Assembly (NCBI GenBank): GCA_946407675.1 | Contig: CAMJPK010000001.1 | Span: 1-58,333, forward strand | DNA length: 58,333 bases | Origin: an uncultured Clostridia bacterium | GTDB taxonomy: Bacteria; Bacillota; Clostridia; Oscillospirales; Oscillospiraceae | Direction: 5' to 3' | The notes under the pieces: generated by a model | What the model was told of the DNA's origin: nothing | The model's input: the letters and a program-made list of their open reading frames with translations, nothing else | Databases searched by the model: none | Part shown: positions 1 to 14,771 of the stretch, one piece after another | Layout: each line of letters starts with the position of its first letter | Position numbering within the stretch: the first letter of the stretch is position 1 | Made by a program: the position numbers and the translations under genes

Positions 1-1519
1 CGACCAGTACATGTACCCCTTCTACAAGCATGACATCGAAACCGGCGCCATCACGGACGACGAGGTGCTGGAGCTGCTGGAGATGCTGCGCGTCAAGATC
101 ATGCAGTTCAACTTCGTCAACGGCGGCGCGCAGCAGCGCGACAAGTGGGCCGGCATGGCCCGCTGGCACAACTTCCTGATCGGCGGCGTGAAGAAAGACG
201 GCAGCGACGCGACCAACGAGCTAAGCTACCTCGTCATTCAGGCGGCCTACGAGGTGCGCATCCCGCAGTACACGATCACCGTCCGCGTCGCAAAGAGCAC
301 GCCGCAGGCCCTCCTGATGAAGGCCGCGGAGCTCGTGCGCACCGGCATCGGCATGCCCGCCTTCGTCTCGGACGAGAGCTACATCGCCGGGCTTGTGGAG
401 CAGGGCATCCCGCTGGAGGAGGCGCGCGACTACGCGCTGGCCGGCTGCCTGGACCTGAACCTCCCCGGCAAAAGCCGCATCAACGCGCTGGGCATGTTCA
501 TCGTGCCGAAGGTACTCGACATCACGATGCACAACGGCGTTCTCACGCAGACCGGCGAGCAGCTCGGCCCGCGCACCGGCGAGATGAAGGACTTCGAGAG
601 CTTCGAGGCCTTCATGGACGCCTTCAAGACGCAGCTGAAGTATTTCATGGGGCTTTACAACGAGGAGCACAACATCCTCATCCGCGTCAGCAGGGAAACC
701 AGCAGCGACGTGGTGCACTCCGCGTTCACCTACGAGGGCATCAGCTCCGGCCGCGATATGTTCGACCGGAAGATGTTCTATGAAAACGCCTCCATGTTCA
801 ACCCGATCGGCATGATCAACGTCGCCAACTCGATGGCGAGCGTGAAGAAGCTGGTGTTCGACGAAAAGCGCTTCACGATGGAGACGCTTTACAAGGCCAT
901 CGAGGCCGACTGGGCCGGCTATGAGGACATCCAGCGCATGTGCGCCGCCGCCCCCAAGTTCGGCAACAACGATCCCTTTGTGGACGACCTCGCCGCGGAG
1001 CTCTACGACTACTGGATCCAGACGACGGCCTCCTTCCGCACGATCTACGGCGCGCCCCCGCGCCCGACCGGCGTCTCCATCACGGCGCACGCCCCCGGCG
1101 GCGCCTACACCTGCGCCACGCCGGACGGCCGCCACAGCGGAGAGACGCTGTGCGACGGCGTCATGAGCCCGTCGCAGGGCACGGACCACGAGGGCCCGCT
1201 CCAGTCGCTTTCCAGCGCCATGCGCATCAACCAGACCCCGTTCAACGCCGCGCTTCTGAACATGAAGATCTCGCCCACCGCCATGAAGAGCGAGCAAGAC
1301 CTTGAAAAGTTCGTCGCCCTCGTCAAGACCTACATGTTCCACGGCGGCAAGCACATCCAGTTCAACGTCGTTTCCAACGACACGCTGCGCGCGGCGCAGG
1401 CCGAGCCGCAAAAGCACTCCGACCTGATCGTGCGCGTCGCGGGCTACAGCACCTACTTCACGCTGCTCACGCCGGCGGTACAGAACGAGATCATCAAGAG
1501 AACGGAAAACCAACTTTAA
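1..1519 (+). CDS. Glycyl radical enzyme (PFL2 / dehydratase-like family), C-terminal part; the 5' end lies upstream of the window
   Basis: The ORF is open to the window edge (frame of nt 2). It aligns along its whole length with the full-length paralog at 5759-8158 (DQYMYPFYK vs DQYMYPYYK onward). Glycyl-radical fingerprint RVAGYSTYF (Gly codon 1442-1444). Thiyl loop AGCLD (Cys codon 446-448, Asp 452-454). Confidence 0.9.
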   Translation, partial: DQYMYPFYKHDIETGAITDDEVLELLEMLRVKIMQFNFVNGGAQQRDKWAGMARWHNFLIGGVKKDGSDATNELSYLVIQAAYEVRIPQYTITVRVAKSTPQALLMKAAELVRTGIGMPAFVSDESYIAGLVEQGIPLEEARDYALAGCLDLNLPGKSRINALGMFIVPKVLDITMHNGVLTQTGEQLGPRTGEMKDFESFEAFMDAFKTQLKYFMGLYNEEHNILIRVSRETSSDVVHSAFTYEGISSGRDMFDRKMFYENASMFNPIGMINVANSMASVKKLVFDEKRFTMETLYKAIEADWAGYEDIQRMCAAAPKFGNNDPFVDDLAAELYDYWIQTTASFRTIYGAPPRPTGVSITAHAPGGAYTCATPDGRHSGETLCDGVMSPSQGTDHEGPLQSLSSAMRINQTPFNAALLNMKISPTAMKSEQDLEKFVALVKTYMFHGGKHIQFNVVSNDTLRAAQAEPQKHSDLIVRVAGYSTYFTLLTPAVQNEIIKRTENQL

Positions 1520-1535
1520 TCGCACGGAAGGATCG

Positions 1536-1626
1536 GCTCCCCTGAAAGGGGAGCTGTCGCGAAGCGACTGAGGGGTCTGACCCCTCCGACCTCGCTCCGC
1601 TCGGCCACCTCCCCTTTCAGGGGAGG
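1536..1626. repeat. Dispersed double-hairpin intergenic repeat, two units tail-to-tail (composite ~90-bp palindrome)
   Basis: gctcccctgaaaggggagc (1536-1554) + tgtcgcgaagcgactgaggggtc, then the inverted unit ending in cctcccctttcaggggagg (1608-1626). Same family as the loci at 11171, 14806, 20112 and 49213. Confidence 0.85.
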
Positions 1627-1650
1627 ATCAAAGGGACAAGGAGGATTCCC

Positions 1651-2328
1651 ATGGACAAGAAGGCATTGATCGACGCCATTCTGGAAAAAGAGTGGCCGAT
1701 GTTCCACAACGTCAACGGCGAGGAGCGCGCCTCCTGCCAGAACGACTATCCGGTGTTCGAGATCATGCGCCGCGCGCAGTACGACGCGTGGAGCACCACG
1801 GCGCTCGAGGCCTATCTCGCGGACGTGACCGCCGCCGCGGCGGCGGGCCGCAACCTCGCGCGCGAGAAATACATCCGCATGATGGAAAGCACCGACCCGC
1901 GCGGCTATGCCGCCTTCTGCGGCGAGCTGCCGCCCGTCTCGGAGGAGCAGCGCACTCTCGCCGGGAAGATCTGGGAGAAGATGCTGGCGCAGACCGAGCG
2001 CCTGCGCGAGAATTACCCCATTCTGGCGCTGGGCGGCCGGCCGCTGCACGCGAGCGAGGAGCGGGACGGCTGGGCCTCCATCGAGACCTACCAGACCAGC
2101 GAGCTGCTGACCTATTCCGCGCCGACGCTCCGCGCGCTTCTGGCGGAGATCGAGCGGCTGGAGGCCGAGGGCAGGGACTTCGTATACATGGTGCAGGAAA
2201 ACACCGTGACCGGACAGGGCTTCCCCGACATGGCCGCGGCGGAGAAGGCCATGGCCGAGCAGCTCCTGAAGGAAATGAACATCGAGATCGGCGGCGGCGG
2301 ATGCTGCTGCTGCGGCCCGACCGAGTGA
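1651..2328 (+). CDS. DUF4125-like protein with C-terminal GGGGCCCCGPTE tail
   Basis: 225-aa ORF with RBS aaggagg 7 nt upstream. The N-terminal EKEWPMFHNVNGEERASCQNDYPVFEIMRRAQYDAW...GRNLAREKYIRMME pattern matches my memory of the DUF4125 family. Four consecutive TGC codons at 2302-2313. Confidence 0.75.
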   Translation: MDKKALIDAILEKEWPMFHNVNGEERASCQNDYPVFEIMRRAQYDAWSTTALEAYLADVTAAAAAGRNLAREKYIRMMESTDPRGYAAFCGELPPVSEEQRTLAGKIWEKMLAQTERLRENYPILALGGRPLHASEERDGWASIETYQTSELLTYSAPTLRALLAEIERLEAEGRDFVYMVQENTVTGQGFPDMAAAEKAMAEQLLKEMNIEIGGGGCCCCGPTE

Positions 2329-2350
2329 TAATAGAAGAATTTTATTACGG

Positions 2351-2379
2351 TTGATTTCCTGTGCGTTCCATGATAGAAT
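2351..2379 (+). promoter_or_regulatory. Sigma-A-type promoter candidate for tctBAC
   Basis: TTGATT, 17-nt spacer, TAGAAT with TGn extended -10 (atgaTAGAAT), in an AT-rich gap upstream of tctB. Confidence 0.55.
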
Positions 2380-2442
2380 GACAGCACAAAATCATTTGAT
2401 AATTCTGCGTTTTTCCCACCATCCGATTCTGGAGGCATGTCA

Positions 2443-2934
2443 ATGAACACGAAACAGAAAGACCGGGTCCTCGGCGTCATACTGCTGCTGATCTCGCTGT
2501 TCTTCTTCTACTTTACGATGCAGCAGGAGGCCGCCCGCTTCGAGGGCGACCCCGGCCCGAAGATGTTCCCGCTGATCGGCTGCGTCATCACCGCGGTGTG
2601 CGGCATTCTGACGATCGTGCACCCCGACAAAAAGGAGCACAAGGCCTACCTCTCGAAGGAGGAGTTCAAGCGCGCGGCCAAGCTCTTCGGGCTGTACGCG
2701 GCCTTCCTCGTGCTGATCTGGGGCGTCGGCTTCATGATCACGGCGCCGCTGCTCCTGTTCGCGATCTCCGTGCTGTTCTCGTTTGAATCCCGCCCGGACG
2801 ATCCCTGGGGCAAGCGCATTTTGCGCAGCGCGATCTACGCCGTCATCGTCGGCGGCGCGCTGTACCTGCTCTATGTCACGGTGCTGCAGACACAGCTGCC
2901 CACGGGCGCGCTGTGGAAGCTGTTCAAGAAGTAA
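2443..2934 (+). CDS. tctB: Tripartite tricarboxylate transporter TctB-family small membrane subunit
   Basis: About 160 aa with 4 predicted TM segments, located directly upstream of tctA. I prefer the ATG at 2443 (GGAGG 7 nt upstream) over the ATG at 2437 (1-nt spacing). Confidence 0.8.
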   Translation: MNTKQKDRVLGVILLLISLFFFYFTMQQEAARFEGDPGPKMFPLIGCVITAVCGILTIVHPDKKEHKAYLSKEEFKRAAKLFGLYAAFLVLIWGVGFMITAPLLLFAISVLFSFESRPDDPWGKRILRSAIYAVIVGGALYLLYVTVLQTQLPTGALWKLFKK

Positions 2935-2949
2935 GGAGGGAAAAACGAT

Positions 2950-4470
2950 ATGTGGCAATACATACTGGATTCTCTCCGGGCGCTGGCCTCCGTCACCGGC
3001 GTGCTCTACATCCTGCTGGGCTCCATCGTCGGACTGCTGTTCGGCTCGCTGCCCGGCCTCGCCGGCGGCACGGTCATGGTCATGCTCCTGCCCATCACCT
3101 ACAAGATGAACCCGGTGCTCGCGCTGGCGCTGTTCATCTCCATCCACATCGGCTCCACCTCCGGCGGCTGCATCGGCTCGATTTTGCTCGGCATCCCCGG
3201 CACGAGCTCCTCGATGGCCACGGTGTGGGACGGCTATGAGTTCACCAAGCGGGGCGACCCCGTCCGCCCGCTGTCCGTCGCGGTGGTCTGCAACTTCATC
3301 GGCACGCTCCCGTCCATCCTCATCGCGATGGCGGCGGCCAAGTTCCTCGCCGACTGGGGCGTGAAGCTCGGCCCGTGGGAGTACGCCGCGATGTGCTTCT
3401 GCGCCGTCGCCATGGTCGTCGGTCTGAGCGAGGGCAACCTCGTCAAGGGCATCGCCGGCGTCGGGCTCGCCATTTTGCTGTGCTCCATCGGCCCCGACCC
3501 GATCAGCGGCCGTCCGCGCCTGACCTTCGGCAACATGTACCTCTACGACGGCTTCAACATCATCAACATCATGCTCGGCATGTTCGCCGCGAAGATCATT
3601 CTGCTCGAGTACGCCCGCCGCACCAAGACGCAGGACGCCAGCAAGATCAAGGTCCGCGGCTTCAAGTGGCCCGGAAAGGACATCCTCGACAACCTCGGCA
3701 ACCTGATCCGCTCGTTCATCACGGGCGCGTTCATCGGCTTCCTGCCCGGCCTCGGCGCCCCGACCAGCACGGTCATCGCCTACTCCAACGAGCGCAACCT
3801 CGACAAGAAGCACAAGGAGCTGTGGGGCCACGGCCACATCGGCGGCGTCATCGCCCCGGAGGTCGCGAACAACGCCGGCATCGGCGGCGCGATGATCCCG
3901 ATGCTCGCCCTCGGCATTCCGGGCGACGCCATCATGGTCCAGTTCCTCGCCGTCATGAGCATCCACGGCGTGCAGTCCGGCCCGATGCTGATGACCACGA
4001 ACCCCGAGATGGTCTACATGCTCTACACGGCGGCGATCATCGCGGCGCTCTTCGTCCTGCTCGTCGAGGTGGGCGGCATGCCGCTGTTCCCGAAGTTCAT
4101 CTCCATGCCCTACCACTTCCTCTATCCCGCGATCATCGTCATCAGCTTCGTCGGCGCTTACATGACCGCCGGCAACATGATGGGCGTCATCGTCACCCTC
4201 TGCGCCTGCCTGCTCGGGCTCGGCATGGATTACTTCGGCGTGCCGACCACGCCGTTCATCATGATGTTCATTTTGAGCTCCCTGCTCGAGAAGAACATCC
4301 GCCAGGGCCTCAACCGCTCGTTTGACGGCGTCATCGACTTCTTCAAGCGCCCCGTGTCCCTCGGCTTCATCGTCGTCGGCTTGCTGGTGCTGGTGCTGCA
4401 CACCGTCATTCCCGCGATCAAGGCCGCGAAGGAGAAGAAGAACGCCGCGGCGCAGACCGAGGCGGAATAA
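2950..4470 (+). CDS. tctA: Tripartite tricarboxylate transporter TctA-family large permease
   Basis: 506-aa polytopic membrane protein. N-terminal LLGSIVGLLFGSLPGLAGGTVMVMLLP and an internal GFLPGLGAPTSTVIAY repeat are typical of TctA. RBS ggaggg. Confidence 0.9.
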   Translation: MWQYILDSLRALASVTGVLYILLGSIVGLLFGSLPGLAGGTVMVMLLPITYKMNPVLALALFISIHIGSTSGGCIGSILLGIPGTSSSMATVWDGYEFTKRGDPVRPLSVAVVCNFIGTLPSILIAMAAAKFLADWGVKLGPWEYAAMCFCAVAMVVGLSEGNLVKGIAGVGLAILLCSIGPDPISGRPRLTFGNMYLYDGFNIINIMLGMFAAKIILLEYARRTKTQDASKIKVRGFKWPGKDILDNLGNLIRSFITGAFIGFLPGLGAPTSTVIAYSNERNLDKKHKELWGHGHIGGVIAPEVANNAGIGGAMIPMLALGIPGDAIMVQFLAVMSIHGVQSGPMLMTTNPEMVYMLYTAAIIAALFVLLVEVGGMPLFPKFISMPYHFLYPAIIVISFVGAYMTAGNMMGVIVTLCACLLGLGMDYFGVPTTPFIMMFILSSLLEKNIRQGLNRSFDGVIDFFKRPVSLGFIVVGLLVLVLHTVIPAIKAAKEKKNAAAQTEAE

Positions 4471-4535
4471 GAAAGCGCATATCACGGGCAACCGTGCTAT
4501 ATAGGACAGGAAAACAAAATCTGAAGGAGGAAACT

Positions 4536-5648
4536 ATGAAGAAACTCATCGCATTCCTGCTTGCTGCTGTGATGATCGTCGCCCTCGTGGGCTGCGGCAG
4601 CGCCAAGACCGAAACCAAGACCGAGGCCCCGAAGACCGAAACCAAGACCGAGGCTCCCAAGACGGAGGCCCCCAAGACCGAAGAGCCCAAGACCGAGGCC
4701 CCCGCTGAGGTCAAGTGGCCCACCGGCGACGTGACCATCCTCGTGCCCGCCGATGTCGGCGCGCCCCTCGATCTGGCCACCCGCGTCATGAAGGACTACC
4801 TGCAGGAGAAGACCGGCTTCAACATCATCGTGAAGAACGACGGTACCGGCGGCGGCGCCAAGCTCGGTGAAGAGCTCTACAACGCCCCGAAGGACGGCAG
4901 CGTTCTGATGTATGCCGGCGGCGGCCAGGTGCCCCCGTACTACAACGGCTCCTGGGCCCACAACCTCTCCAACCCCGACGACTACACCATCGTCTCCTCG
5001 ATGGTCGGCCTGGCGGTCCCCTCCGGCGCCGTCGTCGTCACCCAGCCCGACGCCCCCTATGACACCTGGCAGGCCCTGATCGACTACATCAAGGCCAACC
5101 CCAACACCGTCGTCGCCGGCGCCGCCAACGGCACCCCGCACGAGGTCCGTCTGAAGCTCCTGCTGCGCGAGGAGGGCGTTCTGGATAAGGTCCGCTGGAT
5201 CTCCGGCACCAACAACGACATCTCCACCGGCCTGCTCGGCGGCAGCATCAACGTCGGTATGCTGACCGAGACCGCCGGCCCGCAGTTCATGGCCGAGGGC
5301 AAGCTGAAGGGCCTGCTTTACAGCAACGTCGTGCGCAACTACGCCGGCAAGCCCGAGGTCGTCGCCGCGCTCGACTCCGTCCCGACCGTCGCCGAGATCT
5401 ACGGCGAGGCGAAGGCCCCCGAGCTGACCTGCGCATGGCCGATGGCTCTCGCCGGCCCCGCCGGCATGGATGAGGCGCTCGCCGACAAGATCTGCGAGGT
5501 CGTCAACTCCATCGTCGACAGCCCCGAGTACATGGAGCGCGTCAAGGCCCTGGGCGGCACCAACACCTTCCAGGACTTCACCCGCGCCGAGATGCGCGAG
5601 ATGATGGATCGCGTCGACGCCCAGTGCAAGAGCTTTTTCGGCAACTGA
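4536..5648 (+). CDS. tctC: TctC/Bug-family substrate-binding lipoprotein with KTE(T/A/E)P tandem-repeat linker
   Basis: Lipoprotein signal MKKLIAFLLAAVMIVALVGC, RBS aaggagg. Mature part ILVPADVGAPLDLATRVM...VKNDGTGGGAKLG...PKDGSVLMYAG resembles the TctC/Bug fold signature. The upstream ATG at 4494 lacks an RBS. Confidence 0.85.
   Translation: MKKLIAFLLAAVMIVALVGCGSAKTETKTEAPKTETKTEAPKTEAPKTEEPKTEAPAEVKWPTGDVTILVPADVGAPLDLATRVMKDYLQEKTGFNIIVKNDGTGGGAKLGEELYNAPKDGSVLMYAGGGQVPPYYNGSWAHNLSNPDDYTIVSSMVGLAVPSGAVVVTQPDAPYDTWQALIDYIKANPNTVVAGAANGTPHEVRLKLLLREEGVLDKVRWISGTNNDISTGLLGGSINVGMLTETAGPQFMAEGKLKGLLYSNVVRNYAGKPEVVAALDSVPTVAEIYGEAKAPELTCAWPMALAGPAGMDEALADKICEVVNSIVDSPEYMERVKALGGTNTFQDFTRAEMREMMDRVDAQCKSFFGN
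4605..4703 (+). repeat. In-frame tandem repeat encoding the KTETKTEAP/KTE(A/E)P linker of TctC
   Basis: 33 codons: KTETKTEAP x2 followed by KTEAP, KTEEP, KTEAP directly after the lipobox Cys. Confidence 0.9.
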
Positions 5649-5758
5649 TCTGAACCCATAGCAAATCCGAATACACGCGGCGGGAGCCCAACCGGGCTCC
5701 CGCTGCGGTGTCCTTGAGGAAAATAACATCGTATTACTACCCGGAAGAGGTGTCTGCT

Positions 5759-8158
5759 ATGAATACGGAACGCATTGAACGCATCAAGAAGACCGTCATG
5801 GTCGACCATTATCCGATCTGCATCGAGAAATTCCGCATCACGCTGGACGTGCGGGAGCAGACCCGCAACGACAGCGTCATCATCCAGCGAGGCAAGATCC
5901 TGAAGGCCTGCGCGGAGCGGATGCCCATCGCCATCGGCGACGACGAGCTGATCGTCGGCATCGCCTCCAGCAAGCACATGGGCCTGGAGATCGACCCGGA
6001 CTACGGCATCTGGCCGCAAAACGAGATCGACTCCCTGAAGGCCGACGGCTTCCTCGTCGATCCCCAGGACGAGATCGACCTGCAGGAGCTGAACAAGCGC
6101 TACACGCCCAACACCCTCATCGGGCAGATGGGCGACATCTTCTATGACAATGAACGATTGATCAACATGCTGCGCGCCGGCCTGATCCTTCCCCCGTGGA
6201 AGCCGAAGGAGACCGAGCGCGGCGTCGGCGGCGGCTATGCCCAGAGCGGTCTGGGCCTGGGGCCCTCGCTGGTGCTGCTGTGCGTGGAGTATGACAAGAT
6301 CCTGAAATACGGCACGCGCGCGCTCATCCGCCAGGCGCGGGAATGCCAGAGCAAGATCCGCTTCACGGACATGGAGGCGCTGGACAAGTACCGCTACTAC
6401 GACAGCGTCGTCATGGCGTTTGAGGCGATGAACACGCTGGCCGCCCGCTATGCCGCGCTGGCGTCGGACATGGCGGCAAAGGAGACGCGCCCGCAGCGGA
6501 AGGCCGAGCTGGAGCAGATCGCGGCGATCTGCCGCGCCGTGCCCGAGAACCCGGCGAAGACCTTCCGCGAGGCGGTGCAGGCCTTCTGGTTCCAGGTGCT
6601 CTTCCTCAGCCCGTCCACCACGCTGCCCGGCGGCCGCTTCGACCAGTACATGTACCCCTATTACAAGGCCGACCTCGCGGCCGGGCGCATCACCTCCGAC
6701 GAGGCGCTGGAGCTGCTGTGCCTGCTGCGCCTGAAGGACATGGAGCTGGGCCGCACCTCCGGCAGCGAGCTGCGCAAGAAGAACTCCGGCATGGCCAAGT
6801 GGCACAACTACACGATCGGCGGCGTCGATCCCGTCACCGGCGAGGACGCCACCAACGACCTGACCTACCTGCTCATCGACGCGGCGATGATCACGAAGAC
6901 CCCGCACCACACGCTGACGCTGCGCGTCCACGAGAAGACCCCGCCAAAGCTTCTGCAGCGCGCGCTGGAGTGCGTGCGGCTCGGCCTCGGCATGCCCGCC
7001 TTCGTCTCCGACGGCAGCTACACCGCCACCTTCGCCTCCCGCGGCTGCCCGATCGAGTACGCGCGCGACTTTGTGATGACCGGCTGCCTCGACGGCAACC
7101 TGCCCGGCAAGAGCCGCACCGGTCCCGTCCCGATGGTCACCTTCCCGCTGATCTTCGACATCTTCCGCCACAACGGCGTGGACGTCAAGACCGGGCTGAA
7201 GGCGGGCATCGACGTCGGCAACTTTGCGGACTTTGAAAGCTATGACGACCTGTTCGCCGCGCTGGCGAAGGAGATCGACTATCTGCTGCGCCTGATCGGA
7301 GAGAAGAACAACGTCGAGCTCGCGATCACGCAGGAGCTGCTCTTTGACCCGCTGCGCAGCGCGCTGATGTTCGAGGGCATCGAGTCCGGCAAGGACACGT
7401 GGAAGCGCGTCATGCCCTTTGAAAACTGCGCCGTCGTGAACCCGATCGGCATGGTGAATCTCGGCGATTCGCTGGCCGCGATCAAGAAGCTGTGCTTTGA
7501 TGAGAAGAAGTACACGCTCGCCGAGCTGGGCAAGGCCCTTGACGCCGACTGGGTCGGCTATGAGCAGATGCAGCGCGACTTTGAATCTGCGCCGAAGTAC
7601 GGCAACGACATCGACTATGTGGATAACATCGTCGCGGACTGCTACAAGCTGCTCAACGACACGGTGGCGACGATCCCGAACATCCTCGGCTATCCCACGA
7701 TCGCGACGGGCATCTCCATCACCTCCCACCAGCCCGGCGGCCAGCTCACCGGCGCGACGCCGGACGGGCGCAAGGCCGGCAGCATCCTCGCGGACGGCAC
7801 GACCTCGCCGATGCACGGTATGGACTGCTGCGGCCCGACGGCGGTGTTCAAGAGCGCGATGAAGATCGACCAGGACCCGATGCAGGCCACGCTTCTGAAC
7901 ATGAAGTTCCCGCCCTCCGTCCTCAAGACGGACGCGGACCTCGCCAAGCTCGGCGCGCTCATCCGCACCTATCTCACCCACGGCGGCAAGCAGGTGCAGT
8001 TCAACGTCGTCGATCAGGAGACGCTGCGCGCCGCGCAGGCAACGCCGAAGGACTACCGCGACCTCGTCGTGCGCGTCGCCGGCTACTCCACCTATTTCGT
8101 GACGCTCTCCCGCTCCATGCAGGACGAGGTCATCGACCGCACGAGCCAGACGCTTTGA
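5759..8158 (+). CDS. Glycyl radical enzyme (PFL2 / dehydratase-like family), full length, 799 aa
   Basis: N-terminal ERIERIKKTV...ELIVG is typical of GREs. Thiyl loop TGCLD (Cys codon 7085-7087, Asp 7091-7093). Glycyl motif RVAGYSTYF (Gly codon 8081-8083). Start chosen at MNTERIE (RBS gaagagg) rather than the ORF-track ATG at 5708. Confidence 0.93.
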   Translation: MNTERIERIKKTVMVDHYPICIEKFRITLDVREQTRNDSVIIQRGKILKACAERMPIAIGDDELIVGIASSKHMGLEIDPDYGIWPQNEIDSLKADGFLVDPQDEIDLQELNKRYTPNTLIGQMGDIFYDNERLINMLRAGLILPPWKPKETERGVGGGYAQSGLGLGPSLVLLCVEYDKILKYGTRALIRQARECQSKIRFTDMEALDKYRYYDSVVMAFEAMNTLAARYAALASDMAAKETRPQRKAELEQIAAICRAVPENPAKTFREAVQAFWFQVLFLSPSTTLPGGRFDQYMYPYYKADLAAGRITSDEALELLCLLRLKDMELGRTSGSELRKKNSGMAKWHNYTIGGVDPVTGEDATNDLTYLLIDAAMITKTPHHTLTLRVHEKTPPKLLQRALECVRLGLGMPAFVSDGSYTATFASRGCPIEYARDFVMTGCLDGNLPGKSRTGPVPMVTFPLIFDIFRHNGVDVKTGLKAGIDVGNFADFESYDDLFAALAKEIDYLLRLIGEKNNVELAITQELLFDPLRSALMFEGIESGKDTWKRVMPFENCAVVNPIGMVNLGDSLAAIKKLCFDEKKYTLAELGKALDADWVGYEQMQRDFESAPKYGNDIDYVDNIVADCYKLLNDTVATIPNILGYPTIATGISITSHQPGGQLTGATPDGRKAGSILADGTTSPMHGMDCCGPTAVFKSAMKIDQDPMQATLLNMKFPPSVLKTDADLAKLGALIRTYLTHGGKQVQFNVVDQETLRAAQATPKDYRDLVVRVAGYSTYFVTLSRSMQDEVIDRTSQTL

Positions 8159-8176
8159 TCCCCGCCCATACCGCAG

Positions 8177-8211
8177 ATCCGGCGGCGTTTTCCATGCGCC
8201 GCCGGATTTTC
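8177..8211 (+). terminator. Rho-independent terminator after the second glycyl radical enzyme gene
   Basis: 11-bp stem atccggcggcg / cgccgccggat, 9-nt loop, followed by TTTT. Confidence 0.8.
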
Positions 8212-8276
8212 CTTGCATTGCGCACGAAACGCGTATACAATGCAAACCATATCGCGTTTGAAACGGGTGCATCTCA

Positions 8277-9623
8277 ATGAACAGAAATGAAATCAATATG
8301 ACCGAGGGGCGGATGCTGCCCAAGCTGCTGCGCTTCGTCGTGCCGCTGATGCTCTCCTCGCTGCTGCAGCTGGCCTTCAACGCCGCGGACCTGATCGTGG
8401 TCGGCCGCTTCGGGCGGCCCAACGCGCTGGCGGCCGTCGGCTCCAACGTGGCGCTGGTCTCGCTGGTGGTGAACACCTTCATGGGGCTTTCCATCGGCGG
8501 CGGCGTGCTCTGCGCCCGCTTTTACGGGGCGAAGGACCGCCAGCGGCTGGTTGAGACGGTGTCCACCGCGCTGATCGTCGGCTTTACCGGCGGCATCGTG
8601 CTGGGCGCGATCGGCGTTGCGCTCGCGATGCCGCTGCTGCGCCTGATGGGAAGCCCGGACGACGTGGCCCCGCTGGCGGCGGTCTACCTGCGCATCTATT
8701 TTGCCGGCATGCCGGTGATCGCGCTGTATAACTTTGCCGCGGCCCAGCTGCGCGCGATGGGCGACACGCGGCGGCCCTTCCTCTTCCTCGCCGCGGCGGG
8801 CGTCGTGAACGTTGCGCTGAACCTGTTCTTCGTCGTCGTGCTGGGCATCGACGTGGCCGGCGTCGCGCTCGCGACGGTGCTGAGCCAGTGCCTGTCCTGC
8901 TTCCTGACCGTCCGCTGCCTGCTGCGCACGACAAATCAGACCCTGCGCGCGCTGTGCTTTTCCGGCCGGCTCTTCCGCGACGTGCTGCGCATCGGTCTGC
9001 CCGCGGGCATACAGGGCTCGATGTATTCCATCGCCAACTTCGTCATTCAGGGGGCGGTCAACGCCCTCGGCACCGCGGTCATCACCGGCTGCGCGGCCGC
9101 CTCCAGCTTGGAGGGCTTCCTCTTCTGCCCGGTGGACGCCTGCCAGCAGGCGGCGACCACGTCGGTGAGCCAGAACCTCGGCGCGGGGAAGCTTGCGCGC
9201 ACGGACCGGGCGGCATGGCAGTGCATTGTGCTGGTCGCGGTCATCTCCGGTGTGGGCGCCGTGGCGATCTATCTCCTGCGCGCGCCGCTCCTGGGGCTTT
9301 ATACAACGGATGCCGCGGCGCTCGCGGCGGCCTGTGTCCGATTGCGCATCGACGCGTACTTCTATGCGATCAACGGCCTGATGGCGGTGGCCTCGGGCGT
9401 CGTCCGCGGCCTGGGACACAGCAGCCTGCCCGCGTTCGTCACCTTCCTGGGCTGCTGCGTGCTGCGCATCGTCTACATCTACACCCTCTATCCGTCGGCC
9501 CCCTCGGTGGGACGGCTGTTCATCGTCTATCCGATCTCCTGGACGGTCACCACGACGGTGCACATCATCTGCTTCTTCGTCATCCGGCGCCGGATGCGGC
9601 AAACCGCGGGGTGTTCCGAGTAA
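8277..9623 (+). CDS. MATE-family multidrug/oligosaccharidyl-lipid efflux transporter
   Basis: 448 aa, about 12 TM segments. N-terminal LPKLLRFVVPLMLSSLLQLAFNAADLIVVGRF is a classic MATE signature. The exact start is uncertain (alternative Met at codon 8). Confidence 0.88.
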   Translation: MNRNEINMTEGRMLPKLLRFVVPLMLSSLLQLAFNAADLIVVGRFGRPNALAAVGSNVALVSLVVNTFMGLSIGGGVLCARFYGAKDRQRLVETVSTALIVGFTGGIVLGAIGVALAMPLLRLMGSPDDVAPLAAVYLRIYFAGMPVIALYNFAAAQLRAMGDTRRPFLFLAAAGVVNVALNLFFVVVLGIDVAGVALATVLSQCLSCFLTVRCLLRTTNQTLRALCFSGRLFRDVLRIGLPAGIQGSMYSIANFVIQGAVNALGTAVITGCAAASSLEGFLFCPVDACQQAATTSVSQNLGAGKLARTDRAAWQCIVLVAVISGVGAVAIYLLRAPLLGLYTTDAAALAAACVRLRIDAYFYAINGLMAVASGVVRGLGHSSLPAFVTFLGCCVLRIVYIYTLYPSAPSVGRLFIVYPISWTVTTTVHIICFFVIRRRMRQTAGCSE

Positions 9624-9731
9624 CGCGGAAAAAGATTGCAATTCCGGGAAAATCCATATACAATAAAGCTCTACGCCCCGCGGGGCGAAAAACTGCGGTG
9701 GGGGAGGGCCCCTCGCCGAAAGGAGAAAACA

Positions 9732-11168
9732 ATGGCAAAAGAAAAGAAAGTGGAACAGATCACCGATATGGAGGTCGATTTCGCCCAGTGGTTCACCGAC
9801 GTCTGCATCAAGGCGGAGCTGGTGGACTACTCCGGCGTCAAGGGCCTGTTCATCCTGCGTCCCTACGGCTACGCCATCTGGGAGGCGATCATGACCTATC
9901 TGGACAAGCGCTTCAAGGAGCTCGGGCATGAGAACGTCTCGATGCCGCTGCTGATCCCGGAGAGCCTGCTGCAGAAGGAGAAGGACCACGTCGAGGGCTT
10001 CGCGCCGGAGTGCGCGTGGGTCACGCTGGGCGGCAGCGAGGAGCTCGAGGAGAAGCTCTGCGTCCGCCCCACGAGCGAGACGCTCTTCTGCGACCACTGG
10101 AGCCACATTGTCCATTCCTGGCGCGACCTGCCCTGCAAGTATAACCAGTGGTGCTCCGTTCTGCGCTGGGAGAAGACCACCCGCCCCTTCCTGCGCGGGC
10201 GCGAATTCCTCTGGCAGGAGGGCCACACGATCCACGCGACGAAGGAAGAGGCCATGGCCGAGACCGAGCAGATGCTCGAGGTCTACGCCGACTGCTATGA
10301 GCAGCTTCTGGCGATGCCCGTCGTCAAGGGCCTGAAGACCGACAAGGAGAAGTTCGCCGGGGCCGAGCGCACCTACACGGTGGAGTGCATGATGAAGGAC
10401 CACAAGGCCTTGCAAAGCTGCACCAGCCACTATTTCGGCGACGGCTTCTGCCGCGCCTTCAACATCACCTTCGCGGACAAGGAGAACCGGCAGAGCTATC
10501 CGCACCAGACGAGCTGGGGCCTTTCCACCCGCAGCATCGGCGGGCTCATCATGACCCACGGCGACAACAACGGCCTCGTCCTGCCGCCGCACGTCGCGCC
10601 TGTGCAGGTCGTCGTCGTGCCCGTCGCGCAGCACAAGCCCGGCGTGATCGAGAAGGCCGCCGAGCTCTACGCGGCGCTGAAGGCCGCGGGCGTGCGCGTC
10701 AAGATGGACGACAGCGACAATTCGCTGGGCTGGAAGTGCGCGCAGTATGAGATGAAGGGCGTGCCGCTGCGCATCGAGCTGGGGCCGCGCGACATCGAGG
10801 CGGGCCAGTGCGTCGCCGTCCGCCGCGACAACTTTGAGAAGACCACGGTGGCGCTCGACGCGCTGACCGAGGCCGTCCCGGCGCTGCTGGAGCAGGTGCA
10901 GCAGGGGCTGTACGACCGGGCGAAGCGCAACCTCGATGAGCACATCCGCGACTGCGAGACGCTTTCGGAGGTCAAGGACTTCATGGCCGGCGAGGGCGGC
11001 TTTGCGCGCACCAAGTGGTGCGGCGACCTCGCCTGCGAGCTCAGGATGAAGGACGAGGCGGGCGTTTCCTCCCGCTGCATGCCCTTTGCCCAGCGCGGCA
11101 CGAAGGGGAAGTGCGTCTGCTGCGGGAAAGAGGCAACGACGGACATCCTCTGGGGCGTCGCCTACTAA
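9732..11168 (+). CDS. proS: Proline--tRNA ligase (class II; appears to be the archaeal/eukaryote-like architecture, C-terminal ...WGVAY)
   Basis: Start at MAKEKKVEQITD with RBS aaggaga. FAQWFTDV, RPTSETLF, WCSVLRWE, FLWQEGHT and a C-terminal Cys-rich domain ending in Tyr. The architecture call (about 478 aa, no insertion editing domain seen) is from memory, not an alignment. Confidence 0.93.
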   Translation: MAKEKKVEQITDMEVDFAQWFTDVCIKAELVDYSGVKGLFILRPYGYAIWEAIMTYLDKRFKELGHENVSMPLLIPESLLQKEKDHVEGFAPECAWVTLGGSEELEEKLCVRPTSETLFCDHWSHIVHSWRDLPCKYNQWCSVLRWEKTTRPFLRGREFLWQEGHTIHATKEEAMAETEQMLEVYADCYEQLLAMPVVKGLKTDKEKFAGAERTYTVECMMKDHKALQSCTSHYFGDGFCRAFNITFADKENRQSYPHQTSWGLSTRSIGGLIMTHGDNNGLVLPPHVAPVQVVVVPVAQHKPGVIEKAAELYAALKAAGVRVKMDDSDNSLGWKCAQYEMKGVPLRIELGPRDIEAGQCVAVRRDNFEKTTVALDALTEAVPALLEQVQQGLYDRAKRNLDEHIRDCETLSEVKDFMAGEGGFARTKWCGDLACELRMKDEAGVSSRCMPFAQRGTKGKCVCCGKEATTDILWGVAY

Positions 11169-11170
11169 AG

Positions 11171-11218
11171 GCTTCCCCTTGAGGGGAAGCTGTCGCCGCA
11201 GGCGACTGATGAGGTGTC
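11171..11218 (+). repeat. Dispersed double-hairpin intergenic repeat, one unit
   Basis: gcttccccttgaggggaagc + tgtcgccgcaggcgactgatgaggtgtc, starting 3 nt after the proS stop. Confidence 0.8.
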
Positions 11219-11264
11219 ACAGCGAAGCGGCGCACCCCTTAATCCGATACCAACCGAACCCCCG

Positions 11265-11302
11265 CGCGGGGCGGCGGAGCGATCCGCCGCCCCGCGTTTT
11301 TT
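11265..11302 (+). terminator. Rho-independent terminator after proS
   Basis: 13-bp GC-rich stem gcggggcggcgga / tccgccgccccgc, loop gcga, followed by gTTTTTT. Confidence 0.85.
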
Positions 11303-11312
11303 CACTTTCCTC

Positions 11313-11367
11313 TTGACAAACCCGAACCCGTGGTGTATCTTTACTGTACTAACTGTACTAATACAGT
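11313..11367 (+). promoter_or_regulatory. Promoter plus probable GntR operator for the gntR-ABC operon
   Basis: TTGACA (11313-11318), 17 nt, TATCTT. Immediately downstream is the direct repeat actgtacta x2 (11343-11360) and the palindrome ACTGTA-ctaa-TACAGT (11352-11367). Confidence 0.55.
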
Positions 11368-11391
11368 TGCTCACAAAAGTGGGGTGAAGCG

Positions 11392-11757
11392 ATGTTTGCG
11401 ATCAATTACAGGGATTCCCGGCCGATCTATGAGCAGATCATGGACGAGCTGCGCAAAATGATCATATCCGGCGTGTTCGCGCCGGACGAGAAGCTGCCGT
11501 CGGTCCGGGAGCTGGCGCAGCAGCTGGCGATCAATCCGAACACGATCCAGCGGGCGTACCGCGAGCTGGAGATCAGCGGCTACATCTACTCCGTGGCGGG
11601 GAAGGGCAACTTTGCCGCCGCGCGGCATGAGGTGGACGAAAGCCGCAAAACGGCGCTGCTGGCGCAGCTGGCCGAGACGGCGCGGGAGCTGCGCTTCCTC
11701 GGCGTCAGCGACGCGGAGATCGCCGAAACAGTGAAGGGAGGAAGCAGCGATGATTGA
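11392..11757 (+). CDS. GntR-family (YtrA-subfamily, short) transcriptional regulator
   Basis: 121 aa. Winged-HTH KLPSVRELAQQLAINPNTIQRAYRELE. The stop overlaps the start of the downstream ABC ATPase. Confidence 0.9.
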   Translation: MFAINYRDSRPIYEQIMDELRKMIISGVFAPDEKLPSVRELAQQLAINPNTIQRAYRELEISGYIYSVAGKGNFAAARHEVDESRKTALLAQLAETARELRFLGVSDAEIAETVKGGSSDD

Positions 11758-12643
11758 AGTTAAGAACGTCACGAAGCGCTTTGACGGCTTCGCGGCGCTG
11801 CGCGATTTGACGATGACGGTGCCGACCGGCGCGGTCTACGGCCTCGTGGGGCCGAACGGCTCCGGCAAGAGCACGATCATCCGCCACATCACGGGCATTT
11901 TCCGGCAGGACGCCGGCGAGGTGCTTGTGGACGGACAGCCGGTGTACGAAAACCCGGCGGTCAAGGCGCGCATCGCCTACATCCCCGACGACGTCTTTTA
12001 TTTCCCGCAGGCGGGCGTCCGGGACATGATGCAATACTACAAGGGGATCTATCCGCGCTTCGACGCGGGGCGCTACGAGAAGCTGAAGGAGGTCTTTCAG
12101 CTTGACGAGCGCCAGCCCATCCGCCGCATGAGCAAGGGCATGCAGAAGCAGGCGGCCTTCTGGCTGGCCATGTGCCAGATGGCGGACGTCGTGGTGCTCG
12201 ACGAGCCGGTGGACGGCCTCGACCCGGTGATGCGCCGGCAGATCTGGGGCCTTCTCATGGCGGACGCCGCCGAGCGCGGCCTGACCGTGCTGGTGTCCAG
12301 CCACAACCTGCGCGAGCTGGAGGACGTCTGCGACCACGTGGGCATCCTCGACCACGGCCATCTGCTCTTAGAGCGCTCGCTCAGCGAGCTGCAGGAGAAC
12401 ATCACGAAGGTCCAGATCGCGCTGCCGGACGGCCGCCCGCTGCCCGAAGGGCTCAAGCTCGTCCACGAGACGGTCACGGGCCGCCTGCGGACGCTGATCG
12501 TGCGCGGCGACCCGGACGAGACGCTGCAAAAGCTGCAGGAGTGCGAGCCGCTGTTCCTCGACGCGGTGCCGCTGTCGCTGGAGGAGATCTTCATTTACGA
12601 GCTGGGAGGTGCCGACTATGCAGTCAAAGACATCCTGCTTTAA
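11750..12643 (+). CDS. ABC transporter ATP-binding protein (ABC-2/YtrB-like)
   Basis: Walker A GPNGSGKST, signature MSKGMQKQ, Walker B VVVLDEP, H-loop SSHNL. Confidence 0.92.
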   Translation: MIEVKNVTKRFDGFAALRDLTMTVPTGAVYGLVGPNGSGKSTIIRHITGIFRQDAGEVLVDGQPVYENPAVKARIAYIPDDVFYFPQAGVRDMMQYYKGIYPRFDAGRYEKLKEVFQLDERQPIRRMSKGMQKQAAFWLAMCQMADVVVLDEPVDGLDPVMRRQIWGLLMADAAERGLTVLVSSHNLRELEDVCDHVGILDHGHLLLERSLSELQENITKVQIALPDGRPLPEGLKLVHETVTGRLRTLIVRGDPDETLQKLQECEPLFLDAVPLSLEEIFIYELGGADYAVKDILL

Positions 12644-14771
12644 CAAAACGCTTTTCCGGAAGCACGTCACGCGCTTCTGGCCGGTCTGGACGGCGTATTT
12701 CGGCATCTGGCTGCTGATCCTGCCGATCGGCGTGCTCTCCGCGCGCCGGAGCATCGCAGCCAATCCGTTGACGGTGCAGACCGCGGTGCTGAACAGCGCC
12801 GGCGGGCTCGGCGTCGTCCTTCCGCTGGTCTTTGCCGTGCTCATGGCGATGGGCGTGTGGAGCTTCCTCTACAATGCGCGCAGCGCCTCGGGCGCCGGCT
12901 GCCTGCCCCTGACGCGCACGGCGCAGTACTGGTCCGCCGCGCTCGGCGGGCTCGTGCCGCTCGCCGGGGTGCACGTCGCCATCTTCGTGCTGACCGCGCT
13001 GGCCGAGCTGTCCGTCGGCGCGCTGCACCTGCCCTCGCTGCTGACGTGGCTGGGCGTGACGGTTTTAACGCTGCTGTTCTTCTACGGCTTCGCCACCTTC
13101 TGCGCGATGCTGACGGGCAACATCATCGTCCTGCCCGCGGTCTACCTTGTGCTGAACTTCACCGCCGCCGGCGTGGAGCTGCTGCTCAACGGCTTGGCAA
13201 ACTGCTTCCTCTACGGTCTCAACGGCAGCACGTGGAGCGGCTTTGCCGACGCCATGAACTGGCTTTCCCCGGCGATCCCGCTGCTGCGCTTCCTGCAGGC
13301 CGGAACGGATTATATGGAGGACCCCGTTTCCGGGGCGATGACGCCGGTCAGCGTGCACTTTGAGGGGGCGTGGGTCGCGGGGATCTACGCCGCCGTCGGC
13401 GTGCTGCTGCTGCTCGCGGCCTGGGCGCTGCTGCGCCGCCGTCGGATGGAGTCGGCGGGCGACGTCGTCGCCGTCGGGGCGCTCAAGCCCGTGTTCCGCT
13501 GGTGCATGGGCGTCTGCGGCGGGCTGTGCTTCGCCTGCGCGATGCTCTACGTCTTCGATTTCACGTTTACGACCCAGCGCGCGGTCTTCGCGGCGGTCGC
13601 GGTGTATCTCGTGATCGGCGCCTTCATCGGCTGGTTCGCCGCGGAAATGCTGATCCGCCGCTCCTTCCGCGCCTTCACCCGCGGAGTGCGCGGCTGGGCG
13701 GGCTGGGCGCTGTGCTGCGCCGTGCTGCTGCTCGGCCTGACCGCGACGGAGCTGGACCTCTTCGGCGTCGAGCGCCGCCAGCCGAAGCCGGCGCAGATCG
13801 AGTCGGCCATCGTCATCGCCGACGGCGAGGCCGCGCTCCTCACGTCGCCCGAGGGCGTCGCGGCGGCGCTGGACGTGCACCGCGGCATCATCGAGCACAA
13901 GTCCGTGCAGGACCAGACCGCGCAGCGCATCTTCTTCCTGCCCGATTACGACGCGGGCGAGATCGTCTCGGTCCACGTGACCTATCAGCTCAAAAACGGC
14001 GGAACGCTCACGCGCGTCTACCAGCTGCCGCACCTGCCCGGCGCGTCCGACGACGCCGCTGCGGTACAGGCGCTGCTCAACTGCCCCGAGGCCGTGCGCC
14101 GGCGCAAGGAGACCGCCGTGCCCTTCACGCCGGACAACGTGCGCTTCGGCACCGTCCGCGCCGTGATGACCGCGGCGGAGTGCGCCGCGGCAGCGGGTTA
14201 CGACGACCCGGCGGACTACGTCCTGTGCGCGCTCGGCGGCTACTCGCCGCAGGAGGCGAAGGGCATGAGTGACGCATCGCGCGCCGCGGCCGTCGAAAAG
14301 ACGCTGGAGCTGCAGTACAGCGAGTTCGGCGGGATGTACGGCTACGGCTACAACTACGACGGCATCATCGGCTATTATGAAAAGCAGGGGCGGGCGCTGC
14401 CCGCGCCGGACGCGACCGACTGGGACGGCGTGTGGCTGGAGTACACCCTGACGCTGAGCGACGCCGAGGCATGGGCGCTCTATCACGACTGCATCGTCCC
14501 GGACAATGCCGACGGCACGCTCGGGCGCGTGTGGGTGCTCCACACCGAGCCGGACTACGCCGCGACCGTCTGCGCCGGGACGCTGGAGATCGTCGCGGAG
14601 CGGCCCGAGGAGCCGAAGCGGCCCGCGCTGCCCGAGGACTATGGCCCCACCGTCTCCGACGGCTATTACAGCTTCACCACCACCCCGACGGTGGACGCCG
14701 CGCGCACCAACGCCTTCCTGGCCGAGCGCGGCATCCGCTTCCACACCTCCGCCGAGATTTGGGGGGAATAG
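12618..14771 (+). CDS. ABC-2-type membrane permease-like protein with large C-terminal non-membrane domain
   Basis: 717 aa. The N-terminal half (about 390 aa) is multi-TM. The C-terminal half (about 330 aa) is soluble and Asp/Tyr/Gly-rich with no domain I recognise. ATG at 12618 has GGAGG 7 nt upstream and overlaps the ATPase gene end. Confidence 0.8.
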   Translation: MQSKTSCFNKTLFRKHVTRFWPVWTAYFGIWLLILPIGVLSARRSIAANPLTVQTAVLNSAGGLGVVLPLVFAVLMAMGVWSFLYNARSASGAGCLPLTRTAQYWSAALGGLVPLAGVHVAIFVLTALAELSVGALHLPSLLTWLGVTVLTLLFFYGFATFCAMLTGNIIVLPAVYLVLNFTAAGVELLLNGLANCFLYGLNGSTWSGFADAMNWLSPAIPLLRFLQAGTDYMEDPVSGAMTPVSVHFEGAWVAGIYAAVGVLLLLAAWALLRRRRMESAGDVVAVGALKPVFRWCMGVCGGLCFACAMLYVFDFTFTTQRAVFAAVAVYLVIGAFIGWFAAEMLIRRSFRAFTRGVRGWAGWALCCAVLLLGLTATELDLFGVERRQPKPAQIESAIVIADGEAALLTSPEGVAAALDVHRGIIEHKSVQDQTAQRIFFLPDYDAGEIVSVHVTYQLKNGGTLTRVYQLPHLPGASDDAAAVQALLNCPEAVRRRKETAVPFTPDNVRFGTVRAVMTAAECAAAAGYDDPADYVLCALGGYSPQEAKGMSDASRAAAVEKTLELQYSEFGGMYGYGYNYDGIIGYYEKQGRALPAPDATDWDGVWLEYTLTLSDAEAWALYHDCIVPDNADGTLGRVWVLHTEPDYAATVCAGTLEIVAERPEEPKRPALPEDYGPTVSDGYYSFTTTPTVDAARTNAFLAERGIRFHTSAEIWGE

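Follow-up and report, generated by a model that had tools for sequence, protein, structure and literature searches.

Among the anaerobic reactions of gut and sediment microbiomes, the most difficult are those of glycyl radical enzymes (GREs), including the ones behind trimethylamine, p-cresol, skatole, H2S precursors and hydrocarbon activation. The characterised classes differ in the residue two positions after the radical cysteine (Cys+2). A CXE motif, the Glu of which hydrogen-bonds and deprotonates the substrate hydroxyl, is retained by every eliminase of C-O, C-N or C-S bonds and by the three isomerases (June 2026 review, PMC13450708). The decarboxylases HPAD and IAD also have Glu, and PFL and TdcE have two adjacent cysteines (PMC13450708); PhdB has Gln484 at Cys+2 (CxQ; PMC7079210), AAD has Leu (Cys loop GCVL in our alignment), and BSS has Cys493-Met494 (PMC11194802). 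An acidic Cys+2 is thus universal in eliminases and isomerases and present in only two of four decarboxylases (PMC13450708, PMC7079210), and whole GRE clades remain unassigned (PMC13450708). Here, we analysed a 58,333-nucleotide stretch of DNA (the window) from an uncultured Oscillospiraceae bacterium of the Clostridia (contig CAMJPK010000001.1), which opens with two GREs that carry Asp at Cys+2 (CxD). A first-pass annotation, made from the DNA itself, had proposed that this pair fits no characterised active-site class, on the premise that Glu occupies Cys+2 in characterised eliminases and decarboxylases; the premise holds for the eliminases, the isomerases, HPAD and IAD, but not for PhdB and AAD, and the proposal itself is borne out below.

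The two enzymes flank a same-strand gene row, GRE1-DUF4125-tctB-tctA-tctC-GRE2, as seen in the open reading frame (ORF) listing and Pfam scans. GRE1 (2..1519, +) comprises the C-terminal 505 aa of a 798-aa enzyme (Pfam PFL-like E 5e-106, Gly_radical E 9e-30), its N-terminus lying upstream of the window, while GRE2 (5759..8158, +) is a full-length protein of 799 aa (PFL-like E 1e-142, Gly_radical E 9e-30). Both combine a PFL-like barrel (PF02901) with a C-terminal glycyl radical domain (PF01228). Translation placed the motifs exactly, to the base, where the first-pass annotation had read them: the thiyl (Cys) loops A-G-C-L-D of GRE1 (440..454, +) and T-G-C-L-D of GRE2 (7079..7093, +; Cys443 and Asp445), with their GCLD cores at 443-454 and 7082-7093 and a single Cys per loop, and the glycyl radical loop RVAGYSTYF at 1433..1459 (+) in GRE1 and at 8072..8098 (+; Gly775) in GRE2. 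Hence, both proteins have a complete Gly loop and a complete Cys loop, and the radical Gly is kept in RVAGYS of both, unlike in the aminoacyl radical enzymes, which have Ala, Ser or Thr. In HMMER alignments, Asp445 falls exactly on the Glu of GCVE in glycerol dehydratase (GD) and PflD, of GCIE in HplG and of GCTE in HpsG.

Both GREs scored below every NCBIfam cut-off: the functional families gave 348-522 bits, where 678-1150 would be needed. Specifically, they reached 511/522 bits for TIGR01774, the broad PFL2/glycerol-dehydratase subfamily (cut-off 678), 381-506 for the CutC, HypD, HpsG, HpfG and PflD equivalogs (1000-1109; for HpsG alone, 452-506 against 1000), 420-449 for IAD (1100) and 348-376 for HPAD (1150), and the PFL model TIGR01255 gave 88-117 bits (994). 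Solved GRE structures share 27-31% identity with the pair, and the AlphaFold2 (AF2) model of GRE2 (pLDDT 85.5) aligns to them with template modelling (TM) scores of 0.83-0.90. The 1,2-eliminases GD, propanediol dehydratase (PD) and CutC are the best neighbours in sequence and structure (CutC 437 bits, GD 410 bits, TM 0.89-0.90); they share the Gly and Cys loops and an acidic residue at Cys+2 with the window enzymes, but differ in having Glu rather than Asp, in an identity of only 29-31%, and in a substrate-binding loop that is replaced in GRE2 by a clade-specific GGGYAQSGLGLGP insertion. Unlike their loci, the window locus has no microcompartment or aldehyde-processing genes, and its context suggests an anionic substrate. 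The C-S lyases, the succinate synthases and AAD fit the GRE2 model slightly less well (TM 0.83-0.86), with AAD at 383 bits and TM 0.85-0.86, and BSS and MASS are among the weaker matches (280-322 bits, TM 0.83-0.86). Further, the X-succinate synthases, with their pocket for a hydrocarbon and fumarate, have small beta and gamma accessory subunits encoded beside the catalytic subunit, whereas the neighbours here are DUF4125, TctBAC and MatE. The named classes carry CXE, CC, CxQ or CxL, the literature on them yielded no characterised GRE with Asp at Cys+2, and a literature search returned no paper on the CxD clade. Judged by motif and profile score, the pair is outside all named GRE families, and CxD is a so far uncharacterised class of active site among the GREs.

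The Asp is a property of a whole clade. It occurs in every Cys-loop pattern, as G-C-[LM]-D, among the matches listed from the 120 closest database proteins (55-96% identity), and a scan of one genome per GTDB species gave 79 loci, 68 CxD and 11 non-CxD, in which 86 of 100 full-length GREs have G-C-[LVIM]-D. Carriers span Oscillospiraceae, Lachnospiraceae, Selenomonadales, Anaerovoracaceae, Spirochaetes, Acidobacteriota, Anaerolineae, Syntrophus and Desulfobacterota, and the clade is common in gut Clostridia of ruminants, horses, mice and humans. In a neighbour-joining tree it splits into an A branch (AGCLD[LVI]), to which GRE1 belongs, and a T branch (TGC[LV]D[GA]), to which GRE2 belongs. The two window enzymes had been taken for paralogues, and they are indeed related, with 70-72% DNA identity in conserved blocks; because their proteins are only 43% identical, however, they are old paralogues, each from its own subclade, rather than products of a local duplication. 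Thirteen further loci, drawn from several phyla, likewise pair one A gene with one T gene. The gene order varies, the spacing ranges from ~15-25 nt in some pairs (L022, L050) to 4.2 kb in the window, and 10 of the 13 contain exactly one activase. Distances among A partners correlate with those among T partners (Mantel r 0.70, reached in 0/5000 permutations), to which shared species phylogeny could contribute. Single-type loci with their own activase and carrier are also frequent (17 A-only, 38 T-only), and each type therefore looks self-sufficient.

Nested in the A side of the CxD tree is a branch in which Asp has become Gly (AGCLG) and the Gly loop reads VRIGGCS (L082, L085, L086, L088). It is carried by Sterolibacterium, Alphaproteobacteria and Novosphingobium, lineages usually regarded as aerobic.

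The candidate active-site residues were mapped from GD onto GRE2 by HMMER alignment alone. GD His164 corresponds to a Leu (Leu173 region) next to the clade-specific insertion, Glu435 to Asp445 and Asp447 to Pro456; of the residues that surround glycerol in GD, Ser282 corresponds to Thr288, Tyr339 to His349 and Tyr640 to Ser653. Across A and T types, T288, W348, H349, N350, C443, D445, N447, S452, R453, S653, T655 and H657 are invariant or nearly so, while other positions separate the two types, with T-type against A-type residues of Y/G at 160, Q/G at 162, R/F at 332, N/W at 342, G/L at 446 and Q/A at 658. Such a pattern would suit a polar, partly cationic pocket in which the two types bind similar, though not identical, substrates. 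Pocket geometry taken from the GRE2 model was discarded as unusable, the confidence being low at residues 653-687.

Between the two GREs lies a full tripartite tricarboxylate transporter (TTT) system, with all three Pfam families in the canonical B-A-C order: tctB, the small membrane subunit (2437..2934, +; PF07331, E 2e-18), tctA, the large permease subunit (2950..4470, +; PF01970, E 4e-119), and tctC, the substrate-binding lipoprotein (4536..5648, +; PF03401, E 2e-14), called as 370 aa in metagenome contigs. That the GREs act on an imported organic acid had been put forward from this arrangement, and the survey supports it. At least one of TctABC, MatC/CitMHS and TRAP is present in 33 of the 68 CxD loci, compared with 1 of the 11 non-CxD loci, and this interchange of carboxylate importers is the strongest evidence, suggesting that the substrates are organic acids. 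TctABC itself is conserved in L007, L017 and L019 and is also found in L040, L041, L049, L068 and L076. Whether the neighbourhood as a whole is conserved had been posed as a check on the first-pass annotation, and the outcome speaks against a chance juxtaposition: L017 has the exact GRE1-DUF4125-TctBAC-GRE2 order at 86-90% DNA identity to the window, and L019 has the same parts rearranged, but the exact TctABC/DUF4125 context is limited to these nearest relatives, and L102, with a GRE2 ortholog 86% identical, instead has MerR, PGA_cap, PrpD, an activase, a CoA-transferase and a second GRE with MatC.

Clustering the neighbours and annotating them with Pfam gave, per 68 CxD loci, a PucR-type regulator in 22, the MatC/CitMHS dicarboxylate/citrate carrier in 19, PGA_cap (CapA-like) in 18, MmgE/PrpD in 15, TctA, a URO-D-like protein and an Opp-type binding protein in 10 each, a family III CoA-transferase in 9, DUF4125 and a TPR protein in 8 each, and TRAP DctM, a 2-hydroxyacyl-CoA-dehydratase-like protein, MatE and MerR in 7 each. 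The smallest loci (L096, L101) consist only of a regulator, a MatC carrier, a GRE and an activase, plus DUF4125 or PGA_cap. The esterase, O-demethylase-like and 2-hydroxyacyl-CoA dehydratase neighbours of some loci hint at plant-derived acids, and PrpD together with citrate-type carriers hints at tricarboxylates. The metallophosphatase-fold PGA_cap stands directly beside CxD GREs in many loci (among them L023, L031, L071, L074, L101, L102), often with MmgE/PrpD; neither is found anywhere in the window. The metagenome-assembled genome that contains L017, from a sister of the window's organism, has a further CxD locus (L068, 7726-21132), in which a third CxD GRE (TGCVDG) is accompanied by its own TctBAC, PGA_cap, PrpD, PucR and MatE. 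A radical-SAM gene directly 5' of that GRE was considered as an unusual activase and rejected, as it encodes a SPASM-domain protein.

The sequence 5' of the window is revealed by a metagenome scaffold (L007) that is 99.5% identical to window positions 1-14469 and contains the full-length GRE1 gene (L007 6174-8570). Upstream of GRE1 it has a divergent LysR regulator and an NAD-dependent epimerase/short-chain dehydrogenase/reductase (SDR) gene, and beyond these, genes of the pseudouridine kinase/glycosidase type (PfkB and Indigoidine_A domains). The first-pass annotation had recommended searching this region for a regulator and an activase; the regulator was there, but 6 kb of upstream sequence held no activase. 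As had also been observed, no GRE activase adjoins either gene in the window: the sole radical-SAM motif of the CX3CX2C type in its 58 kb, GVPFCPTRCAYCSF at ~36091 (+), is HemN/HemZ-like and not that of a GRE activase. Activases are present in 41 of the 68 CxD loci, and orthologous loci, including L019 and L102, carry one. In the L019 ortholog locus (84% identical), it lies between GRE2 and MatE, where the window has none; therefore, in the lineage of the window the gene either disappeared from this position or was moved, and activation must be in trans.

Taken together, we propose, at roughly an even chance, that this rumen or gut Oscillospiraceae bacterium uses the locus as a LysR-controlled module for organic-acid import and radical conversion that is activated in trans. 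Specifically, the locus would be switched on by the divergent LysR regulator, an organic (poly)carboxylate would enter by way of the lipoprotein TctC and the TctBA permease, and an activase encoded elsewhere in the genome would install the radical on Gly775. GRE1 and GRE2, each self-sufficient, would take as substrates the imported acid and a closely related compound, for example its stereoisomer or what the first step yields. Paralogous GREs that divide the stereoisomers of a carboxylate-bearing substrate between them are already known (PMC13450708), but those are CXE enzymes, ~28% identical to GRE2. The invariant Asp445 may serve as the acid/base, the role of Glu in CXE enzymes, its shorter side chain possibly accommodating a bulkier, anionic substrate, and the invariant Arg453, His349, His657, Asn350/447 and Ser653/Thr655 would hold the carboxylate and hydroxyl groups. 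Of the reaction types, we consider an elimination or isomerisation of a hydroxy- or otherwise hetero-substituted acid the likeliest, at slightly less than an even chance. We favour it because an acidic Cys+2 is universal and catalytic in eliminases and isomerases and dispensable in half of the decarboxylases, because the nearest relatives in sequence and structure are eliminases, and because a gene of the SDR/epimerase type lies beside the LysR gene.

Several observations weigh against this proposal. The residues with which GD protonates the leaving group, His164 and Asp447, are Leu and Pro in GRE2, so that any elimination would not be GD-like, and the locus lacks what eliminase loci typically have, namely microcompartment shells and downstream genes for aldehyde or ketone processing. 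Many loci consist just of a GRE, an activase and a carrier, which would also suit a decarboxylase. Neither the window nor the 6 kb upstream of it yielded a GRE activase, the best PDB matches of TctC (BugD and the terephthalate-binding protein, ~43 bits) are too distant for its ligand to be inferred, and the GRE2 model is poor (pLDDT <50) at residues 653-687, a stretch with candidate pocket residues. Finally, the survey was seeded with GRE2-like motifs, so that the T type is over-sampled, and its control comprises 11 non-CxD loci.

The main rival, unlikely in our estimate, is that the CxD enzymes are radical decarboxylases of an imported arylacetate or aliphatic di- or tricarboxylate, with a product that diffuses out or is exported by MatE or through carrier exchange. 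Decarboxylases own all known plain-carboxylic-acid substrates of GREs (PMC13450708). HPAD, IAD, PhdB and AAD act on carboxylic acids from simple loci with a dedicated importer and activase, and the CxD loci made up of a regulator, carrier, GRE and activase (L096, L101, L032, L065, L080) resemble the logic of the IAD locus. The GRE-adjacent MatE genes in 7 loci would suit product export, AAD is among the better PDB sequence matches at 383 bits, and the esterase, URO-D-type methyltransferase, 2-hydroxyacyl-CoA dehydratase and family III CoA-transferase genes of some loci hint at aromatic-acid metabolism. Nevertheless, an acidic Cys+2 is dispensable in known decarboxylases, this residue being Glu, Gln or Leu and never Asp in these four, yet Asp is invariant here. 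The scores for the IAD and HPAD models are below their cut-offs (420-449 against 1100 and 348-376 against 1150), the structural similarity is weaker (TM 0.85-0.86 for AAD against 0.89-0.90 for GD, PD and CutC), and the locus encodes no small subunit of the HPAD type. That the pair might instead resemble IslA and HpsG in being C-S lyases, with sulfolactate, sulfoacetate or another sulfonated carboxylate as the substrate, seems barely credible. Papers on Bilophila wadsworthia and Taurinivorans muris reportedly mention TTT systems alongside sulfonate-degrading GRE pathways, and HpsG is among the better NCBIfam matches (452-506 bits), but far under its cut-off of 1000; the motif is CxD rather than the CXE that isethionate and DHPS sulfite-lyases combine with an Arg/Gln/Arg sulfonate anchor, IslA, IseG and HpsG are structurally less similar than the diol dehydratases, and neither the window nor any surveyed locus contains a sulfite reductase or sulfite-handling gene.

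Two further alternatives concern how the genes belong together. GRE1 and GRE2 could be subunits of one A/T heterodimeric GRE, which is compatible with the other readings and which we consider quite unlikely. The pairs in 13 other loci across several phyla, the spacing of only ~15-25 nt in L022 and L050, the single activase in 10 of the 13 pairs and the correlated partner distances (Mantel r 0.70, 0/5000 permutations) all speak for such a team, although shared species phylogeny can also yield the last of these. The case for an obligate heteromer is weakened by the single-type loci (17 A-only, 38 T-only), which have an activase and a carrier of their own. Further, both proteins keep complete Gly and Cys loops, the order within pairs is not fixed and the window genes are 4.2 kb apart, and known GRE catalytic subunits are homodimers (PMC13450708). 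Incidental juxtaposition, in which TctABC would import an unrelated nutrient and the GRE substrates would be neutral or non-carboxylate small molecules, is improbable in our view. The GRE2 orthologs in L102 (86%) and L020 (82%) lack TctABC, and half of the CxD loci have no carboxylate carrier within 10 kb. However, three unrelated families of carboxylate carriers interchange beside CxD GREs (33/68 against 1/11 in non-CxD loci), the tct genes lie between both GREs on one strand with no terminator before 8176, and the same arrangement recurs in L017 and the same parts in L019.

Apart from the transporter, the gene between the GREs that had been singled out was one for a DUF4125-like protein with a Cys-rich tail, and Pfam confirms the family. 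The 225-aa protein (1651..2328, +; PF13526, E 2e-57) scores 194 bits against a gathering score of 25 and ends in a C-terminal GGGGCCCC tail (window 2284-2328). An alignment with L007, L017 and L063 showed the tail only in the closest relatives, distant DUF4125 proteins ending without it, and a conserved metal site was accordingly rejected as a family feature. The AF2 model is confident and all-alpha (pLDDT 90); no PDB fold matched it at E <0.001, and NCBIfam and PADLOC returned nothing. A role for DUF4125 as a GRE accessory is possible. In L096 it is encoded directly 3' of the activase, and in a limonene-degradation operon, the sole lead on DUF4125 from the literature search, DUF4125 and DUF4037 adjoin a GRE chaperone gene (PMC12583861). 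It is not CxD-specific, because in L099 (4491-10670) it adjoins a different uncharacterised GRE (LGCVYP, Gly loop RIGGFS), followed there by SDR, DUF4125, TetR and MatE genes. A DUF4125-TPR-DUF4037 triad stands beside CxD GREs or activases in L019 (14.7-17.1 kb), L028 (3.1-5.5 kb), L051 (6.3-8.8 kb) and L058 (19.5-21.0 kb), and the same triad occurs with no GRE nearby in L097 (8.0-10.5 kb) and L098.

The remaining features of the locus are small. In the spacer between GRE1 and DUF4125 is a 99-nt near-perfect hairpin (1531..1629, +; minimum free energy -68 kcal/mol, z -3.5), which occurs once within the window and has no Rfam match. A ~115-nt segment containing it is missing from the orthologous L017 spacer, and it looks like a lineage-specific palindromic insertion. 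The tct genes had been credited with their own promoter, for which there is one sigma-70-like match upstream of tctB (2351..2379, +; TTGATT-17-TAGAAT with TG, 9/12), weak evidence given that shuffled sequences would be expected to give 1.4 such sites. The N-terminus of TctC (window 4536-4740) has the lipobox LVGC and, after it, TEAPK repeats (encoded by a 15/27/42-nt DNA tandem repeat, 4603-4703), which give a low-complexity tether from the lipid anchor to the binding domain; in this, TctC differs from known TTT binding proteins as a Gram-positive-type lipoprotein with a repeat linker. Gene callers start GRE2 at the ATG at 5759, and an exact-sequence look-up matched this form and TctA, but neither an 816-aa GTG-start GRE2 nor the window DUF4125. 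The terminator that had been placed after GRE2 is present as an intrinsic-terminator-like hairpin closing the locus (8176..8208, +; 13-bp G+C stem, -26 to -29 kcal/mol, z -4.5), with the U-rich tail UUUUCCUU directly 3' of it. Beyond it lies a MatE efflux transporter (8277..9623, +; Pfam E 2e-49), which may be associated with the GRE locus, MatE being a neighbour in 7 CxD loci (for example, L019, L032, L036, L048, L068 and L070), with export of the reaction product as a possible function. No riboswitch from which the ligand could be read appeared in an Rfam scan of window positions 1-9000, and long antisense ORFs over the GRE, DUF4125 and tct genes are artefacts, since the window has 64% G+C.

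A bolder reading, which we regard as doubtful, is that the CxD clade forms a further functional class with a radical reaction new to the superfamily, acting on imported hydroxy- or polycarboxylic acids, for example in the stepwise dehydroxylation or the C-C/C-X cleavage of plant or host acids. In that case, A and T would work as an obligate team, sequential or heteromeric, under one activase, and DUF4125 would be a new GRE accessory factor. Returning to the LysR-controlled import and conversion module that we prefer, the locus sharply defines one of the unassigned GRE clades, through a simple rule (G-C-[LVIM]-D) and two co-inherited subtypes. Its TctC is a dedicated binding protein that can be used for ligand fishing, and related loci supply candidate activases. 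The invariant change from Glu to Asp also offers a natural experiment on what the acid at Cys+2 contributes to radical catalysis. With the chemistry of the CxD enzymes assigned, many genes would gain an annotation together, and a route by which anaerobes degrade a class of organic acids might come to light.

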